DNA of 64,000 nucleotides, from contig ML992503.1 in NCBI GenBank assembly GCA_010093995.1, positions 1,925,328 to 1,989,327 of the forward strand, in the 5' to 3' direction. This document shows positions 3,936 to 13,335 of the stretch, piece by piece. The stretch's first letter is position 1, and each line of letters opens with the position of its first letter. Made by a program: the position numbers and the translations under genes. The stretch comes from Elsinoe ampelina. Lineage: Eukaryota. The notes beneath the pieces are model-generated. The model did no database searches, was not told the DNA's origin, and saw only the letters and a program-made list of their open reading frames with translations.

Positions 3936-5516
3936 CTACTTCTCCGGTGGTTGGTCAAAGGAGTAGTTGGTCGGAAAGTGCATGCTGGCGGTGAGTCCGA
4001 ATGGATCAGCATCCAGCATTGGATCAAATGAGTCAAATGCAGCCTGGCTGCCAGGATAGACGTTTGACTGGTTCGTCGATGGTCGTACTCGAGAATGGGG
4101 CTGCGTGGGCGGTTGAGGTGGTGGTTGCTGCACATGAGGTGGCTGGAAGTCTTGGAACTGTTCACCAAGACCAAATTCCCCACCGTCAAATTCGTCCGGT
4201 AGCTGATGTCGATCGTGGGGTTCGTGTTCGAATTGAATATCTTGATGATGAGGGGCATCATATTCTTGTTCTGCAATGAATCAATCTAGGACGAACAGAG
4301 TTCTACGAGGACAATTCGGGGTAACTTGCCGAGTTGATCAATATGATTTTGAAACTGCTTTGGATACGCGTAGCCTGGCGGCATGTGCGAGTGGCCCGCT
4401 CGTGCAGTATTCATCGACCGCGAACTGCCTGTCGAGGCACTAGACATCGCGCTCGAGCTAGTATACTGCGACGACATTGGACGGTGATTCGGTCGGGTCG
4501 CGTGCTGTTGTTGGATAACAGGAGAAAGCTGGACCTGACCTTGAGCCATTACGGTGGATACCGGAGAAGATATCCCACCTTGTTGGACCGAAGCTGTTGA
4601 GCGATTCGACATGGCCGTAGGTGATGATGCATGAGATGATGGTGTCGGCTGACCAGTAGGGCTTTGCATAGACATTGAAGAAGTGCGAGGCATATACTGA
4701 GCAGCGGGTTGCACACGGGCGTTGACACTTTGATACGATCGTCGAGCTTGCTGACGATTGACAGCAGTTCTCTGCAGAGGAGTCGGAATGATGGGTGCGG
4801 GCATCGGGGTCGGCAGGTGAGATGGGTCAAAAACAGGACTTCCCGTCTTGACTTGCAGTTCAGCTTGCACGTCGATGCCTGAGGAGCGTCAGCGACATCA
4901 ACAGAAGGCAATACTCTTGGGTGAACAGACCCTTCTCCAACAAGATCCTCTCAAGCAGAGAGTTCTTGTACCTCAGCATCAAGCACTCATCTGCAGCACT
5001 GCGATGACTCTGTTGCAAGCTGCGCAAAGCCTCTTCATGCTGCTTTATCGTAGCTTCAAGCTGCTTGATGTACTCGCTTCGACGTTCACGAAAGGCAGCC
5101 TGGGCCTGCCTATTACGTTGCTTGCGTTCTTCCGAGGTCGCGTAGATCTTACGCTCAGTCAGTATGGCCATCACGGTGGTCGACAGAACCCATGCAGTCG
5201 GGTCAAAGAGGATAAGAAAAGCACGTGGGCAGGCGAAGATATGAGTGATAGCGGCCGCGGGGTTCATCAATGAAAGGCTTGGATCACTCACAGGCTTACG
5301 GCCGCCCTTCCGTTTCTGTGGTTGCTGCTGATCCGGGGGAATCGCAGCGGAATCTGTTGCGGGCGCAATGTCTGGCTCTGGCGAGGAGCCGAGTGAGCTT
5401 GGTGTATCGCCGCCGATAGCCTCTATCTTTGGGGCTTCGGCCATGGGTTGGTCATGCTGTTGTGCGTCTGCATCGGCCCTGGACGCAGCAGACGAACTGC
5501 TGCCGGCCATGTGCAT
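3936..5516 (-). CDS. bZIP transcription factor (conserved Pezizomycotina family), 4 exons
   Basis: KRKGGRKP|IYATSEERKQRNRQAQAAFRERRSEYIKQLE basic region plus zipper; C-terminal FDPMLDADPFGLTASMHFPT. Introns 5291-5148, ~4920-4880 and GC-AG 4329-4271. Start is 5516 or 5510. Confidence 0.85.
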
Positions 5517-6735
5517 GGAACGTGCCGGGTCGAAGGAGCCAATGCAAGGGCGCGCTGAATGAGGTGCTCGGCGCTAGTGCGGCAGGAGGGTGTGCCAATA
5601 GGACGACGTTGGCAATCGACTTATCAATGGGAGAAAGATAAGAGAAGGGAGGGCGAGAGATGAGGTAAAGAGTTGGGTAATGAAAACAGGCCCGACTTCA
5701 GTAGTGAAAAGCGGCACCAATTCCCCTCGTTCTGAATCTGCTCCCGACAACGGAAGCGACGGAAAGACTTTTCTTCTCTGGCGTGTGTGGCTCCCCTCGG
5801 CTCTTCTGAGAAAAAATGGAAGGACGCTGCAACGCTGTGTGAAAAGTGCTTGCCTTTGCCTCCACCTCCACCTTCTTCGCCAATGACAACCCCATCAAGC
5901 AGCGATGTGACAACGACGCCGCTGACATGCAGTCAAACACACGCCTCCTTGACGGCCGTCGACCCCTCGAATGGTTCCATCGAGTGTCGAATGACTTCCA
6001 CCGTCACGTCTCAGCAGCGTATAATTTCCTGTTGTGGGCAAGTGCCCGTCGGCGGACCGCTGTGAACGCCCTCCTTCCTTCTTGGCTCAAGAGCATTTCC
6101 GGCGCTTCTCCGCTGAAACTTGGGCGACCTCGAGGACTACATCTGATGCGATTGATATGAGACATCAGGGCCATGAGCTGGAAATCTCGTGTCTTTGCCG
6201 AGATGCTGCAAGCTCTGACTGCAGCAACGCAGCGCGCCCGGCTCTCCCAAAGCTTCCACGCGGCATACTAAAAGATTGAATACGTGTTCGTTGGTCGTTG
6301 CTATGATTTCTACATGCTCACGGTCATTGTCGAAGTGCTACTTCAGTATAGGTTAGTGGTGTGATAATGTTGGGAGTAAGATACCAATTGCGAAGGCGCA
6401 AAGTGTCGTTGACTTGCCGCCCGATCTGCTCTTTCCCTCTCAGTCCAGCGACCTCACTCCCACAGCCGGACACTTCAGTCCCGGTGTGTCGGTATCACAC
6501 ATTACCAAGCATCATGTTCTGGGAGTCTTTGATATTTGAAGCAGCTCACACCCCTGGTCGTTCGATACCTCATCAGCTCGCACCTGCAGCTCTGGTGGTT
6601 CTTTGGATGCATATTACAACACCAGGTTATCCATGCGCGGAAACGATCTAGGCCGCCTGACGCCTTTCACCACACTCGCCACAGCAGACCACCATTGATG
6701 GAATTTGACGGCTCTCGTTGCACAGCGCCTGGCTC

Positions 6736-9354
6736 ATGGCTAATCGCTACCACCTACGTCCGAACGTGCAGCGTCCGCCGACGGACTCGCAGCACGGCTG
6801 GTCGCAACCTACAACACCCATCAAAGACTCTTCAAGCATTCTACGACCATTATCGGACATACGAGAAATTACAGAACCGAGCATCGCCGACGTTGCAACA
6901 TTGCGAGCGACCCAGGAAAAGTCAGCAGCGGTGTCAGGTGCCCCTCGACAGACATCCTTCAAACAGAGCGGCACCAGCAAACGTACAAATTCTGTCAGGA
7001 TTGTGGAGCCACAGCCATTGTCTTCCAAGTCCAAGGGAAAGCAGAAGGTGGAATTGGCGCCGCACTTTTCTTCGACTTCAGAGGAAGGCCTAGAAGGCTC
7101 GGACACCTACAGCCTGCCAATCGCCAGCATACCCTCGCGTCATTCGTCGCAGAACGTCAAAAGTCTTCCTCTCGGCAACAGCATCACAGTGGACGGCCAC
7201 GCTTTTCCAGCAGTGCCTCGACGAATACCAGATCGAGGTCGTAGCACTTCTCCTGTCAGACAGATCCGCGATCGCCTTGATCCTGTCAAATCCGACACGT
7301 CTCGCCGGATACCTTCTGGAACTTTCATTCGAGATCCATGCCCTTTTGACATTATTGACCAACCCGTTGCGAGGCACAACCGAATCGCTGCTCAGCTCCA
7401 GGTCGTGGCTCCTCTTTTCGTTGGTGGAGGCAGCATTGAAGGCTTCGCTCGCATTGCAGTCAATGGTGTCGACTGGTCTAGACAAAGACGTCCCTTACTC
7501 GTTTCTCGAATCTCTATCGATCTTTTGGGAATCGAAGAGTTGGGTGGTCAACATCGTCGGTCAGTCTTCCTTTCGCTTGCAACCGAGCTGCTTAACGCCG
7601 AACATCCGCCCCCGAATGATATGGTTGAGTCAACAACACCTTTGTCATTTCGAGACTGCCTGTGGATCCTTAAGCCATCGGTCTCCCATCTACCATTCCG
7701 CATCAGCCTACCACTTGACGTCGGGCCTGCGCCTTTCAAATCCAAGACTGCCCAAATCCGCTATTTGCTTTCCATGTCGATATACGCTAGTGAGAATGGC
7801 AGTCCTGTCATCATCAGACAGTCACAAGAAATCAGCGTCCTCTCGACGTACGATCGTGAGTTCTCAATTTCTGCCGCGATGCACTAAGCTGACGCTGACA
7901 AGCTGAAAGAGCCCTCCGATCTCTGCCGAGTCCACTGACAGCGTTTGACGAAATTCACCTGGCTCGACATGGTCAAGTTGAGACGGTTCGACTTACGGCT
8001 GGTCTTCATCGTCAAGTTTGGGTTAGTGGAAGCAGTATCTTTGTGGACATCCATGTTGCAAACAACAGTCACAAGACATTGAAGAAACTTGAGCTTAGCG
8101 TCGAGAGGGATATTCTATACTACAGGCATGCTGCAGCTTCGACGCTCGAAAAGTCAGCAAGCCAGGCACGAATATTCCAGGATAAGGAACAGACCGTGCT
8201 GCGGAAGACCAGCTTGAAAGTCGGCAAATACGGCTGGAACGGAGTTAGTCCTCACAGCAGTGTGGTCAGGACTTGTGATATCGAGTTGCCCCGAGGCCAT
8301 ACTACTGTCAGATGTGGTCAGTCACGTCTCTGCATGGTTTCCGACTCAGCATTAACATGCTCCCAGGCAAATTCTTCGAGGTCCGGTATTTCTTGAACAT
8401 CACGATCGGCAGCACACACATGTGAGCAAACCAGTACTTTTACTTCGATGACGCTGACTCTTTTCAGGCGGTTCCTGTCTGTACAGTTGCCCATCATCTT
8501 GATACACATGGTACGTCACTTCAACCGAACAGGTAGATAGTCACTGATACAGTTAGAATTCGCTCGACGTGGTCCCAAACGCCGTGAGTCAGGTAGCAGC
8601 TGCCATCGAAGAGAAGCGCGCAGCACATCAGCAGACACAATCTCGCAAGACGTCTGGACAAAGCTCAAATGCTGGAAAGCTTGGTCAACATTCTCGAGAC
8701 CACTCCTCTGCCTCATCAGCGCCGTCCAGAGCACGAATCACCGACCCATCGAGGATGCAAGGCAAGGCTTTTGCGGCCCCTAGACAGCAATCACTCGAAC
8801 AACGAAGAGCTCATGCATCGGAATTACAAGGGATTGGCCAGGCACTGGACAGATCGCCTCGCAAGTACAAGCGACACAACAAGTCATCCAATGCCTCACC
8901 AGCGAAGACTGGTCAAGGTGCTCAGTCTGGACGTTCACAGGGGAACGCTTCCAACCATGACCATCGCTACGCGCAGCAGCACAAATTTGCCTTGCACAAT
9001 GCCCCTTCAAACAATTCCCTCGGTGGTCTCAGTGTTGGATCATACACTGTCCTGAACGGCAGTAACATGAATGTCCACATGGATGGGCAAAGTTTGAGAG
9101 TTCCAATCGGACAAAGCGCTGGAGACTCCATGAGGCAAAAGCTGAGAGGTATGAAGAGCTTGGATTCATTCCGACGGACACGGACAGAAATCTACCATAC
9201 TGGACCACGATACCACGACCTTACTCATGGCGCGCTAGACAACATCTCTCGACCTTCCATAGGCCGCAGACATCACGTCGTGGATCAACTCGGCTTGCAG
9301 CTGCCACCATCGGCACTAGGCTTGTCGAATCCTCGACCTACGCGCAGCATGTAG
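6736..9354 (+). CDS. Arrestin-domain protein, 5 exons; possible C-terminal extension to 9684
   Basis: PLFVGGGSIEG, LPFRISLPLDVGPAPF, RLTAGLHRQVWVSG, DIHVANNSHKTLKKLEL, KFFEVRYFLNI, VQLPIILIHM|NSLD arrestin N/C-fold motifs across GT-AG introns (first 7856-7902). The 5' end is uncertain. Confidence 0.8.
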
Positions 9355-10075
9355 GAACGAAGCCCGGATCGAGGACGACATCAGCGCTCTGACCCATCAG
9401 AGGCCAGGCACAATCGACAACCAAGTTTAGCCAGAAGAGCAAGCGTGCGGCTCCGAGATAGCTTTGACAAAGGTCGTTTTGAGTTTGCAGCAGTCAAGCA
9501 AAAGAGCACCAACGGGATGATGGATTGGTTCAAGAAGAGCATGCATAAATCGAAAGATGATGCTGGGGCGACAAAGGAGACGGGGATGGACTGGTAGAAT
9601 CAGGGTTACGGCATGTCTGGAGCCAAGGGGAGTGCTATGGAGAAGACCCAGAACAAGGGCAAGGAACGGGAGGGTTGGATCTGAGCATGTTGGATTGTGG
9701 ATGGCCGGGGATGCAAGACCAGAGATGCGTAGAGACGGAACATCAGCATCGTTATCAAAGATCTCTTTCTGTGTGTCCTCACCAATCGCGCCGGGGGCAA
9801 AACAAGACGAAAGTGGCTTGAATCGTGATCGTCCTTTGGCCTCGAACAAAGGCTAGTTGTATGCTGTCTGAAACTTTTTCGCCTCATCTCGGGCGTGAGT
9901 ATGATACAATGCAATCCCGTGTACGCCGGCCCGTTCCCCTTCGTGTATAATATACAATGCCACCCCTCCATCCTCACGCTTTTCACGACCCCATCCTCCC
10001 CTCTTGTCCCCTGTCTCCTTCACCCCTCCACCCTGCCCTCGTTCCGTTCCGTGACCAGATCTCTCCCCAAGACAA

Positions 10076-12872
10076 TCAAACCCCGACCCTCCTCTTCGGC
10101 TGGCTCAAAGCGTCCAACCTCGCCCTACTCAGCACACCCTTCTTCTCCTCCTTCCCCTCGCCAGGCTTCTCTTCACTTCCCTCCCTCCCACGCGACGCCT
10201 CCCTTGTCTCTTTGGCTGCACTCCCGTGCCCCTCCTTTGATCCCATCACACCAGCAAACTTCTTCACAGCCCCACCTCCCACCATCTTAGGTCGGTTCCC
10301 GAGGGTCCCCACCCTCTTCCTCTCGACTTCCTTCTTCGCGATACTAGCGCGTGCTTTCTGCGCCGCGGTCCCTTTGGCCCAGATCGGGACGTGGGTTGCG
10401 CTTCTCTCTGCGCCCTTTGGTGCGGTTGTCTGGGTGGGGAGGGAAGGGTAGAGGGACTCTCCTGGAGCGGTCTTGACGCGTTTGGTCGGACGGGGGTCTG
10501 CTTCGAAATCGGCGTCGAGCTTCGCTTTGCCTTTGCCCGTAGCGGCGGGGATGTTGGCGAGGATGTTCGCGTAGGACGAGTCGTTTTCCTTGTCGCTTGA
10601 CACGTTGGCTTGGCTTTTGTCGGCCATGTCGACGTCGGCGTCTTCGTCGTCTTCGGCGTAGGCGCCTGGTGCAGAACGGGTGGGGGCGAAGACGTCGTCT
10701 TCTTCGACGAACTTCCTCTTGCGTTCGATGCCGCCAAGGGCTGTGCCGGGCGAGGGAAGAGCGGGCTCAGCGGAGACATGGCGGATGCTGGGCTTGGGGC
10801 TGTGTTTCTGCGCTGATGGGGAGGGCCCAAAGATGATGCCTTGTCCGACGTCGGCGCGGAAGGTGAAGTCCTTCATGGCCAAGGGGCCGAGGGTCTGGCG
10901 GCGCTTGGTCTCCTTGCTGGGCTTGTCCCGTGGTGGGAGCGAAGGGTAGATGATGTTTCTGCTTGAAGGGACTGGACTCTCGTCGTCAGACTTAGTGGAG
11001 GCGGAGAAGTCGACGTGCTTTGGAACGGGTGCCGTTGCTGGTGGATTGTGAAAGGAGACGCCGCCCCTGTTCGCCGCGGAGCTCATGGTGGGCAGGTCTG
11101 CGAAAGCGTGCGCCTTGACTGTGGGTGGCGTGGCCAAGTGCGTACCGGCCGCAATCTTGTTAGGATCGGTAGAATAGAGGCGCTGAGGAGTACGAAGGAT
11201 TGACTTGATCGGTGACTTGCGAAGAAGCTTGAAGCGATCCATGAGGTTCGAATTCGGTGCGGTACTGGTCGGAAGAGCAGAGAACGGATTACTGTCCATG
11301 GCCGGCTTGGCTGGTGTGCGTGCGAGGAGTGGAATTTTATTCGCAAGACCTTCGTCGTTCGAATCAGAAGCCAGCTCCTTAGGCACGCGCATTGGTGACC
11401 TCGACAACAAAGGCGCCTTGTCCATGGTCGCCTCGGAGTCGCTGTTGTTATGCGCAACAAGACGATCCGCGAACAGAGCTTTGGAAGGCGAACGTGAGAG
11501 AAGTGGACTACCAGGATCAGCACGAGGTGCCTCTTTCTTGGCCGACATGTGGGCGAACTTGGTAGGGGAACGCGCCAGAAGTGAGTTGCCTGCATGCACC
11601 TGGGATGGCGGTGCTTTGGACGCTGACTTGGATGGTGTGCGTGTCAGAGCTGGTATCATGCTCGTCTTGTTGGCTTTCACAGTTGCAGCCCTCGCGAGCG
11701 AAGACTTGGTAGGCGTGGAAAGTCCGGGAAACTTGAGGCTGTTCGATCTGGAAGGAGTGCCGTGGCTTTTCTGCATGACCGATGGTGTTGCCACTTTGAT
11801 GACGGACTGGGCCTGCACCGGTAGCGTTGTCTTTGGCGAGGCCAGCCTGACTCTCTTTGCTGGCGAGCCTCCCTCTTCCGGCGATGGACGCTGGCTAGTC
11901 TTGTCCGGTGTTGGCTGTGTCCTTTGTCGCTCGTGAGATGGGGTGTCTTCAGTGTCTCTCCCGCCTTGCTTGAGTCCAGCTCTTGAGCCAGAACGTTTCA
12001 GCGAAGGATACTGAACCTTACTCTTTCCGCCGCTGTTGGAGTCAGAACCATTGCGACTGTTCGGCCTGACATCCTGCATTCTGTCTCTGCTGCTGGGTCT
12101 GAAGTCTTGGTTCACATCGCGACTGTTCGGTCTCGACACAGAAGCGTGATTGGCGATCGAATCCATCTTCTTGAATTGTGCCATATGAACGTCGCTGAAC
12201 CTGCCGACCTTGCCTTTGGGCTTTGCCTTTCTCCTGTTCTCCAGCGCCTCTTCTTCCTGCTTTTCCTCTTCAATGCGTACCATCTGTTGTTTGATCTTTG
12301 CAGCTTCCTCCCTCTTCTCCGCCATCATCTTGCGCGCTTCATTGCTGAGCTCGAGTGATTGCGCGCGAAAGGTGAATTCAAATGAAGGCTCGGCGTGTTT
12401 GACGTGCTTGGTCGGGGTGTGGGCGGCAGGTGTCCACTTCTCGCTTGCTTTCGGCTTCTCAGTATGTGGACCCATGGCGGAGATGCCGAGCCATCTAGCC
12501 TCGTCGAGTGGTTTCGATGTGCTCTGGTGGAAGTGTTCGGGATGCATCTCCTCAAGTGATGGACGAGGGGCTTTATTCTTTGGAGTGCGCGCCTTGCCAG
12601 CGACGGCATCTGCTATGTGTCTCGCCAGTTTTGTGGGTGTCTCTGAAGGCGAATCGTCCTTTGGAAACGCGCCAGGCATTTCTTCCGACTCGGCGACAGA
12701 AGCCAGCTGCGGCGCGGTCTTTGGTGTGCGCAATTGACCATCCTGGTAGAGGTCGGTGTTCTTTTGGGGCTGAAGATAATTAGTACACGCGACAGAAGCT
12801 GTAAGGGTCGACACTGACCTGCGGCGTAGATGACTTTCGCGCTCGGATGCGAGCCGAAGAACGGCGGGCCAT
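10076..12872 (-). CDS. Conserved fungal basic, S/T-P-rich protein; NuSAP-like motif, probably microtubule-associated
   Basis: ATG 12872 (MARRSSARIRARKSSTPQ), one short intron, then ~900-aa ORF. Motifs RFSDVHMAQFKKMDSI, KEN box, terminal RARLDALSQPKRR. Confidence 0.75.
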
Positions 12873-13335
12873 GATTTAAGAAGAGAAGGTCAAGATGGTC
12901 CGATCGGGGACAATTGAAGAAGTGAAGAATGACTATGACATCTGGCAGAAGCGCAGCATGTCACACGAGAGCACAGGACGAAGCAGAGCAGAGCCTGTCG
13001 AGTCGATACCCTTTGGTTGAGGTTGTGGAAGTGGGACCGATCACGATGGAAGGTCGAGTGAGGTGGAGCTCCGCAAAAACAATCGGCGTCACTCTGTCAA
13101 CAAAAGGCTGCACACTTCGGGCAGAGCCGCACTACGGTGGGCTTTTTCTGCGGGCAGGCAGACTCATCCCACACACACACACGCCGAAATTCACCAGTGC
13201 CAAGTCTTTGATTTCTCGACCTCTAGTCCCAAAAATTAGGATACCTTCAAACCACAAACCACACCTCCATTCATTCACCAACCAGGAAGTCTTCGAGGAT
13301 CATTCGACCAGAATAGCAACAGAACCGCATTCAAG

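Follow-up and report, generated by a model that had tools for sequence, protein, structure and literature searches.

Adenosine-to-inosine (A-to-I) editing of fungal messenger RNA (mRNA) is described as specific to the sexual stage and as performed by Tad2-Tad3 together with Ame1 (PMC11156358, PMC11087585). In these accounts, editing corrects premature UAG codons in 71 Fusarium graminearum genes, and approximately 62% of Fusarium edited sites lie in hairpin loops. The reported sequence motif consists of U at -1, A or G at +1, +3 and +4, G at +2 and C or U at -2 (PMC9600606). Stops corrected by editing are reported to have arisen mostly by change of TGG to TAG, with repeated independent origins and with losses followed by regains, and some arose from codons for residues other than tryptophan (Trp, W) by a single change (PMC10776026). 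Here we describe an arrestin-fold gene of Elsinoe ampelina, a grapevine fungus of the class Dothideomycetes (order Myriangiales), in which two in-frame TAG codons are followed by a conserved C-terminal tail that is probably still translated. The gene lies in a stretch of 64,000 nucleotides (nt) (assembly GCA_010093995.1, contig ML992503.1, positions 1,925,328 to 1,989,327, forward strand), hereafter the window, whose first letter is position 1. An initial annotation of this sequence had proposed stop editing or readthrough of the two codons, which it considered of particular interest should the organism lie outside the Sordariomycetes, as it does.

The gene as deposited (P0239, 809 amino acids (aa)) spans 6739..9354 on the + strand in five exons, with four introns of ~44-52 nt, and its N-terminus (MANRYHL) corresponds to an ATG inside the open reading frame (ORF) at 6709-7887. 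Residues 545-809 match window positions 8557-9351 at 100% identity, placing the last exon at 8556/8557-9354 (+), and the deposited protein terminates at the first TAG. The assignment to the arrestins made in the initial annotation was borne out by an Arrestin_C match above the Pfam gathering score (41.4 vs 27.7 bits, residues 401-544), with 45.3 bits for the same domain in the Sphaceloma (Elsinoe) murrayae orthologue P0003, while Arrestin_N reached 18.0 bits against a cut-off of 24.9 and matched the profile end only. In the reading frame, an ATG at 9349-9351 is followed by TAG at 9352-9354 (site 1, the annotated stop, + strand; context AUG UAG GAA) and then by 80 open codons at 9355-9594 (+) (ERSPDRGRHQ...GMDW), which constitute the first part of the extension and carry a conserved RRAS...RLRDS.D.GRFEFAAVKQKST...MDWFKK module. 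The last of these codons, TGG at 9592-9594, precedes TAG at 9595-9597 (site 2, + strand; context UGG UAG AAU), behind which come 28 codons at 9598-9681 (NQGYGMSG...KGKEREGWI) and a TGA at 9682-9684 that corresponds to the ancestral stop, so that the second part of the extension occupies 9598..9684 (+). This layout agrees in every coordinate and in frame with the one first proposed. Reading through both stops gives a protein of 919 aa in comparison to the default 809 aa, and its single RRxS motif lies inside the first part of the extension.

Openness of the frame alone is no better than chance, as 27 TAG, 67 TGA and 10 TAA codons in the six frames of this G+C-rich window are flanked on either side by 60 or more open codons. 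The extension was instead recognized by homology. With TAG read as W, solely for homology searching, the 109-residue extension aligned over its full length with the C-terminal end of the S. murrayae orthologue (62 identities in 109 residues, 57%; E 6e-34), with 45/79 identities in its first part and all of the final 9 residues (KGKEREGWI) identical. It also matched E. australis over its first 80 residues (E 2e-23) and Myriangium duriaei (E 5e-15). Because the evidence is homology to orthologue C-termini and not openness, the extension can be regarded as homologous coding sequence beyond chance, and the chance openness that the initial annotation had listed as an alternative is set aside. Two homologue searches together returned 237 Dothideomycete orthologues, of which 196 end in W[IVLF] and 114 in GWI. 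Judged from these alignments, the extension is an ancestral, class-wide C-terminal module of the form ...RRAS..LRDS.D..RFEF.AV...W[WL]......EREGWI-COOH. A 'near'-length homologue search found no further Elsinoe proteins. Comparison of 12 of the 26 other window TAG codons that bridge long open frames to Pfam, with TAG as X, had low power and found no domain spanning a TAG; one of the 12 frames had a bZIP match wholly on one side of its TAG. The frame at 4863-5894 (-) has a bZIP_1 match (E 6.4e-6) of 26.6 bits, just below the 27.6 cut-off, and an in-frame TAG upstream of this match that probably lies in an intron or 5' region.

Orthologue tree analysis separated a clade A, composed of E. fawcettii and the pair E. 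ampelina and E. batatas (support 95/98), from a clade B, in which S. murrayae is sister to lineages 1 and 2 of E. australis (support 95/95). Both the E. batatas protein (P0002) and that of E. fawcettii (P0005) end at the site 1 column, the 30 preceding columns being gap-free, and in clade B the same column is occupied by Q (E. australis) or K/R (S. murrayae). Since all three clade A proteins end at this column and clade B has sense residues there, the first stop dates to the clade A stem, and it is old, because the upstream tail of E. fawcettii has diverged to just 65% identity with that of E. ampelina. Within clade A the DNA behind the stop was read in E. ampelina, E. batatas and E. fawcettii being known from their proteins, and the 90% clusters of these two proteins contained no Logan ORFs.

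The site 2 column is occupied by W in S. murrayae, M. duriaei, Dothideomycetidae sp. 11243 and the metagenome locus L001, within the motif MDWWNQ (S. murrayae, sp. 11243), MDWWNR (Myriangium) or NWW (L001). This alignment indicates that Trp is the ancestral residue at site 2, and a one-step origin of the stop is consistent with the W of these four Myriangiales-clade members without a stop there. A one-step origin of the site 1 TAG is an assumption, as the Q and K/R of clade B are known as residues and not as codons. The recoding to Trp suggested by the initial annotation therefore agrees with the residues of relatives at site 2 and does not do so at site 1. E. australis protein P0004 ends exactly at the site 2 column. 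In E. australis lineage 2 (P0240; Logan ORF P0241, 4 contigs) a frameshift causes the tail DNA to be read over 110 codons in the +1 frame, and the second and third positions of the true-frame codons were deduced from this alternative-frame protein. The E. australis stop at site 2 can only be TAG, because P0240 permits xAG or xCG at that codon, and it would be followed by 28 codons and a TGA-compatible codon at the same place as in E. ampelina. Every stop whose letters were read or deduced in this way (n=3) is TAG. As site 2 is a stop in both clades (E. ampelina and E. australis) and S. murrayae has TGG there, the stop either originated in parallel or had an ancient origin followed by reversion.

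Conservation of the tail was compared with S. murrayae and E. australis, in which the first part of the extension is ordinary coding sequence. Identity of this part to two outgroups was 38% and 38% in E. ampelina, 31% and 38% in S. murrayae and 35% and 38% in E. australis. Under a leave-one-out consensus, E. ampelina kept 28/34 consensus residues, S. murrayae 26/34 and E. australis 26/32, and under a strict rule the corresponding values were 15/16, 15/18 and 15/18. All six consensus residues of the second part (6/6) are kept in E. ampelina. The extension of E. ampelina contains no frameshift and one further stop. Between E. ampelina and E. australis lineage 2, second codon positions over 9415-9681 differed at 8/58 and third positions at 29/73 determinable sites (Fisher p 0.0016), a substitution pattern of the coding type. 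Behind site 2 taken by itself, a gapped alignment gave 3/20 second and 9/25 third positions differing, and an ungapped comparison gave 9/26 and 17/30, a contrast that is weak alone. The last nine codons (GKEREGWI and the stop) showed 0 second-position and 4 third-position differences, each of the four being synonymous if the unseen first base is unchanged. Gaps before the TGA summed to multiples of three (7 events in ~270 nt, in comparison to 7 in 76 nt after the TGA), a pattern that is suggestive, as the gapped alignment was optimised by a purpose-made script.

These results point to protein-level purifying selection on the tail behind both stops. Because the module appears to remain under such selection, the tail is probably still made under some condition, through some form of stop bypass. 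The default product would be the truncated 809-aa protein, and under some condition the two in-frame UAG codons would be bypassed to give a 919-aa product that regains the RRAS / RFEFAAVKQK / WW / ...EREGWI-COOH tail carried by almost all Dothideomycete orthologues.

The alternative that survives best, although we consider it unlikely, is that the gene truly ends at site 1, that the tail is dispensable in Elsinoe, and that what lies behind the stop is a remnant that has not yet decayed. Such a relic would fit with the fact that the tail has been broken in three different ways within Elsinoe, that every deposited gene model ends at one of these points, and that long open frames arise commonly by chance in this genome. 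It is difficult to reconcile with a first stop that is common to three species with upstream identity as low as 65%, behind which the extension has nevertheless remained without frameshift and has retained its residues as well as the intact orthologues. Differences are also roughly three times as frequent at third as at second positions, and KGKEREGWI and the position of the stop behind it are identical to those of S. murrayae. A rough estimate, calculated by hand and not by simulation under an assumed 0.15-0.25 changes per site since the clade A ancestor and with indels uncounted, suggested a probability of ~0.002 for the neutral retention of 15/16 and 6/6 residues. Decay of the tail, which the initial annotation had offered as an alternative, is consequently disfavoured by these conservation tests, and bypass of the stops remains the preferred interpretation.

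Among the possible routes of bypass, our tentative first choice is A-to-I mRNA editing, in which each UAG would be converted to UGG (Trp) as occurs in sexual development of Fusarium and Neurospora. Editing would restore the ancestral Trp exactly at site 2. The parallel origin or loss of the stop at this site also matches the pattern that the available text of PMC10776026 gives for editing-corrected stops. When compared with the motif of F. graminearum (PMC9600606), a Fusarium consensus and not an Elsinoe one, the neighbouring bases agree with the preference at 5/6 positions for site 1 and 3/6 for site 2. Both sites have U at -1 and A or G at +1 and +3, although the TAG itself dictates the U at -1 and the G at +1. 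The evolutionary hallmarks of edited stops fit this gene, and the agreement in local features is moderate. A broader interpretation would be that the vegetative cell makes a tail-less arrestin and that the sexual stage restores the tail with its sole RRxS motif and EREGWI end. That Myriangiales possess stage-specific A-to-I editing of premature UAG codons, with this arrestin as the first marker gene, is possible but in our view doubtful.

Evidence for transcription through the tail came from contigs of public sequencing runs, where 4 of the 8 listed runs (X2, X3, X6 and X7, from 2 studies) were examined. No run is on record as RNA; X6 contains complementary DNA (cDNA), because one of its contigs joins 8509 to 8556 (GT..AG) and skips the last intron, which confirms the intron at 8510-8555. 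A 455-nt contig of X6 (record 5) covers 9253-9707 (+), crossing both TAG codons and the TGA, with 0 gaps and 0 differing letters, and contigs of X7 (9230-9389), X2 (9159-9498) and X3 (9159-9400) are also colinear with the genome. Site 1 is covered by 4/4 runs and site 2 by 1/4, with no differing letter. The dominant transcript is thus unspliced through both UAG codons and reaches past the TGA to 9707. Such contigs do not report editing levels, strand or transcript ends, and they leave parts of the gene (7854-8469 and others) uncovered.

Several observations weigh against the interpretation that the tail is restored by editing. TAG codons can be favoured by plain CpA-to-TpA mutation bias. No A-to-G difference was present in the run contigs, which have A at both sites, in data that lose minor variants and for which the life stage is unstated. 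The -2 base is G at both sites, a base depleted in the Fusarium motif, and the site 1 adenosine is predicted to be paired in a stem and not in a loop. The site 2 adenosine occupies the first position of a 3-nt loop within a predicted hairpin of -2.8 kcal/mol, a result equalled by 117/200 shuffled sequences. Within Elsinoe the tail has been broken by the site 1 stop in clade A, by the site 2 stop in E. australis and E. ampelina, and by the frameshift of E. australis lineage 2, which falls right after ...RERTERDLE and shifts the entire conserved tail out of frame relative to P0004. By this sequence comparison, tail loss is tolerated in at least one Elsinoe lineage. As far as the available texts state, A-to-I editing of mRNA is on record solely for Sordariomycetes and Pyronema and went undetected in Aspergillus nidulans and Botrytis cinerea (PMC11156358, PMC11087585), and the origin of the Ame1-Tad3 interaction is placed within Sordariomycetes (PMC11087585). 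The same literature describes the question of which other classes have editing as one that 'remains to be determined'. In our full-text literature searches, whose hits were judged mostly by title and abstract, nuclear mRNA editing was not reported for Elsinoe or any other member of the Dothideomycetes; the per-taxon stop states in the supplement of PMC10776026 may list Dothideomycete cases.

The metagenome loci add to the points on this side. Among the 31 loci with complete tails, 28 have no internal stop. Locus L037 (Pleosporales-like, 1.5-kb contig) contains an in-frame TAA at L037:1320-1322 followed by 39 codons ending in ...REWDGWI, which argues against editing because a single A-to-I change cannot open TAA. 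An apparent deletion of ~20 residues lies upstream of this TAA, and a pseudogene, an error or an intron that went unrecognised could account for L037. Loci L001 and L002, which have identical tails from two samples and belong to the Myriangiales clade (support 98/96), contain an in-frame TAG (CTG TAG GAC; L001:4260-4262, and the same in L002) in the tail at L001:3501-4610. Measured from E. ampelina site 1, this TAG lies ~14 codons downstream, and the 115 codons behind it end in ...GREGWV. These loci were considered as an independent case of recoding and were downgraded to ambiguous, since a plausible 72-nt in-frame intron starts at the TAG.

Aureobasidium was likewise considered as a second case. 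Its orthologues end in ...WLGERLGRSS[RH], without the GWI end, and the case was rejected, as the stops at L003:4473-4475 and L005:4473-4475 are TGA with nothing conserved in frame behind them. One partial protein of A. melanogenum (P0129) goes on with W (RSSRWKGIAKQ...) at the point at which others, including P0010, stop, a difference that suggests a TGA/TGG polymorphism or a gene-model artefact.

Translational readthrough, in which near-cognate tRNAs would sometimes decode the UAG codons and a small extended share of the protein, made in all life stages, would keep the tail under selection, is the chief mechanistic alternative to editing and is rather improbable. It shares with editing the entire conservation evidence, the mRNA does carry the extension, and it needs no editing machinery in a class without known editing. 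The nucleotide contexts are unfavourable to it. A purine after the stop makes for strong termination, and known leaky stops are of the types stop-CARYYA or UGA-CUA. Here each stop is followed by a purine (UAG GAA CGA and UAG AAU CAG), and the leaky +4 C context is not present. Two serial stops would moreover multiply two small efficiencies, so that an adequate yield is unlikely, yet the last 28 codons have been kept, and near-cognate decoding would not restore Trp at site 2. Rfam comparison found no element in 9000-10000 and a tRNA scan found no tRNA gene in the window, and TAG closes 14/35 long open frames of the window, so that TAG is not generally a sense codon.

Alternative splicing could in principle dispose of the first stop without recoding, and we consider this explanation improbable. 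A regulated in-frame intron of 57 nt (19 codons) at 9351..9407 (+), as read from the sequence (GTAGGA...CTGAC...CAG), would remove site 1, and the protein would then end at site 2 as in E. australis. Its signals would be a weak 5' site (GTAGGA), CTGAC at 9389-9393 as branch point and the AG of 9406-9407. The TAG of L001 lies in the same GTAGGA hexamer, where the plausible 72-nt in-frame intron ends in CCTAATGTTGTCAG, and the real introns of the L001 gene measure 55-70 nt and include some with odd 5' sites. Against this explanation, the X6 (9253-9707) and X7 (9230-9389) contigs are colinear and show no splice joint at 9351, at a contig resolution that minor isoforms escape. AG dinucleotides at 9400 and 9402 precede the in-frame AG, and use of the one at 9400 leads to a frameshift and a stop at 9458-9460. 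The supposed intron also encodes an SP.RGR motif that recurs in E. australis and sp. 11243. At site 2 no intron would work, the best candidate measuring 39 nt, which leaves the conservation of the last 28 codons unexplained. The initial annotation had named splicing from 9351 to 9400 and early polyadenylation as events that would remove the region, and neither was seen in contigs that are colinear and extend past the TGA. An assembly or sequencing error, or a mutation private to the strain, is scarcely credible, given that 4/4 runs from 2 studies match without other letters at site 1, that one run covers site 2 as well, and that the deposited protein and the sister species stop at the same site 1 column.

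Two further features of the locus were recorded. A converging, S/P/K/A-rich open frame of 937 codons lies at 10076-12889 (-), with its stop ~390 nt from the arrestin TGA, and the 3' ends of both genes may overlap. In intron 1 of the arrestin gene, the 3' part (window 7888-7903) reads GCTGACGCTGACAAGC, a doubled branch-point-like motif that is identical in the distant fungus of L001 and L002 (L001:2752-2767, L002:2752-2767). The end of an ORF that reads into the intron in E. australis (P0243, ...AKLTLTS) shows this motif too. This is unusually strong conservation for an intron, 0.01 chance matches being expected in the window.

The locus offers two defined adenosines (9353 and 9596), one of them at an ancestral Trp codon, so that the editing question can be tested cheaply. 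If editing were true, it would bear on the origin of the fungal editing system, since with Myriangiales included fungal mRNA editing would have arisen either independently for a third time or much earlier in the Pezizomycotina than the Sordariomycete-specific Ame1 model allows. It would also imply that gene models of Dothideomycete plant pathogens ending at in-frame TAG codons may be systematically truncated. Should readthrough apply instead, the gene would be a rare double-stop case, and if neither applies, it would provide a well-dated stepwise loss of a conserved arrestin tail.

In comparison to known systems, the encoded protein resembles trafficking adaptors of the alpha-arrestin/ART type in its Arrestin_C match above cut-off, its weak Arrestin_N match and its long disordered tails. 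ART-type adaptors use PY motifs ([LPV]PxY) for binding of Rsp5/HulA. Unlike these ubiquitin-ligase adaptors, the Elsinoe, S. murrayae and Myriangium proteins lack such motifs, as a regex scan found no [LPV]PxY in the 919-aa read-through protein, P0003 (S. murrayae) or P0006 (Myriangium); a single LPTY is present in Cercospora P0016. Programmed stop-codon readthrough in fungi adds functional extensions, for example cryptic peroxisomal targeting signals, and the arrestin gene is similar in having a conserved in-frame extension behind a stop. It is dissimilar in that its contexts are UAG-G and UAG-A and not UGA-CUA, its stops are two in series, and it has a GWI end and no peroxisomal signal.

Closer to the proposed mechanism is stop-loss editing, described for hundreds of genes in F. 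graminearum and N. crassa, among them DBF2 (PMC13123824, as far as its available text covers), where an annotated UAG stop and a C-terminal extension are found alike. The Elsinoe extension differs in that it corresponds to the ancestral class-wide C-terminus, so that bypass would amount to restoration rather than to a novelty derived from the 3' untranslated region (3'UTR).

The closest counterparts are the premature-stop-corrected (PSC) genes of Fusarium graminearum and Neurospora, PUK1 and AMD1 among them, which depend on UAG to UGG editing by Tad2-Tad3-Ame1 in the sexual stage. Truncated Fusarium PSC products appear to be non-functional in the available account (PMC10776026). The Elsinoe stops, unlike those of PSC genes, affect the C-terminal regulatory tail alone, and the truncated protein keeps its arrestin fold and may function. 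Further differences are that the host is a Dothideomycete, that editing is putative here, that the -2 base is the disfavoured G and that structure prediction places site 1 in a stem. The PSC trait of an unedited transcript outside the sexual stage, as described in the accessible literature, has its parallel in the Elsinoe run contigs, which are likewise unedited and come from an unstated life stage. As in PSC genes, the sequence that surrounds the in-frame UAG codons has homology to intact orthologues, and what lies downstream of the stops is conserved. From what the available texts of PMC10776026 and PMC11156358 describe, the likeness extends to the origin of the codons, one site deriving from an ancestral TGG and the other presumably from a non-Trp codon by one change. 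It also extends to their distribution, two separate lineages having a stop at site 2 where a third has a sense codon. On sequence comparison, the E. ampelina arrestin gene is therefore a candidate addition to the premature-stop-corrected class, in a fungal class without reported recoding of this kind.

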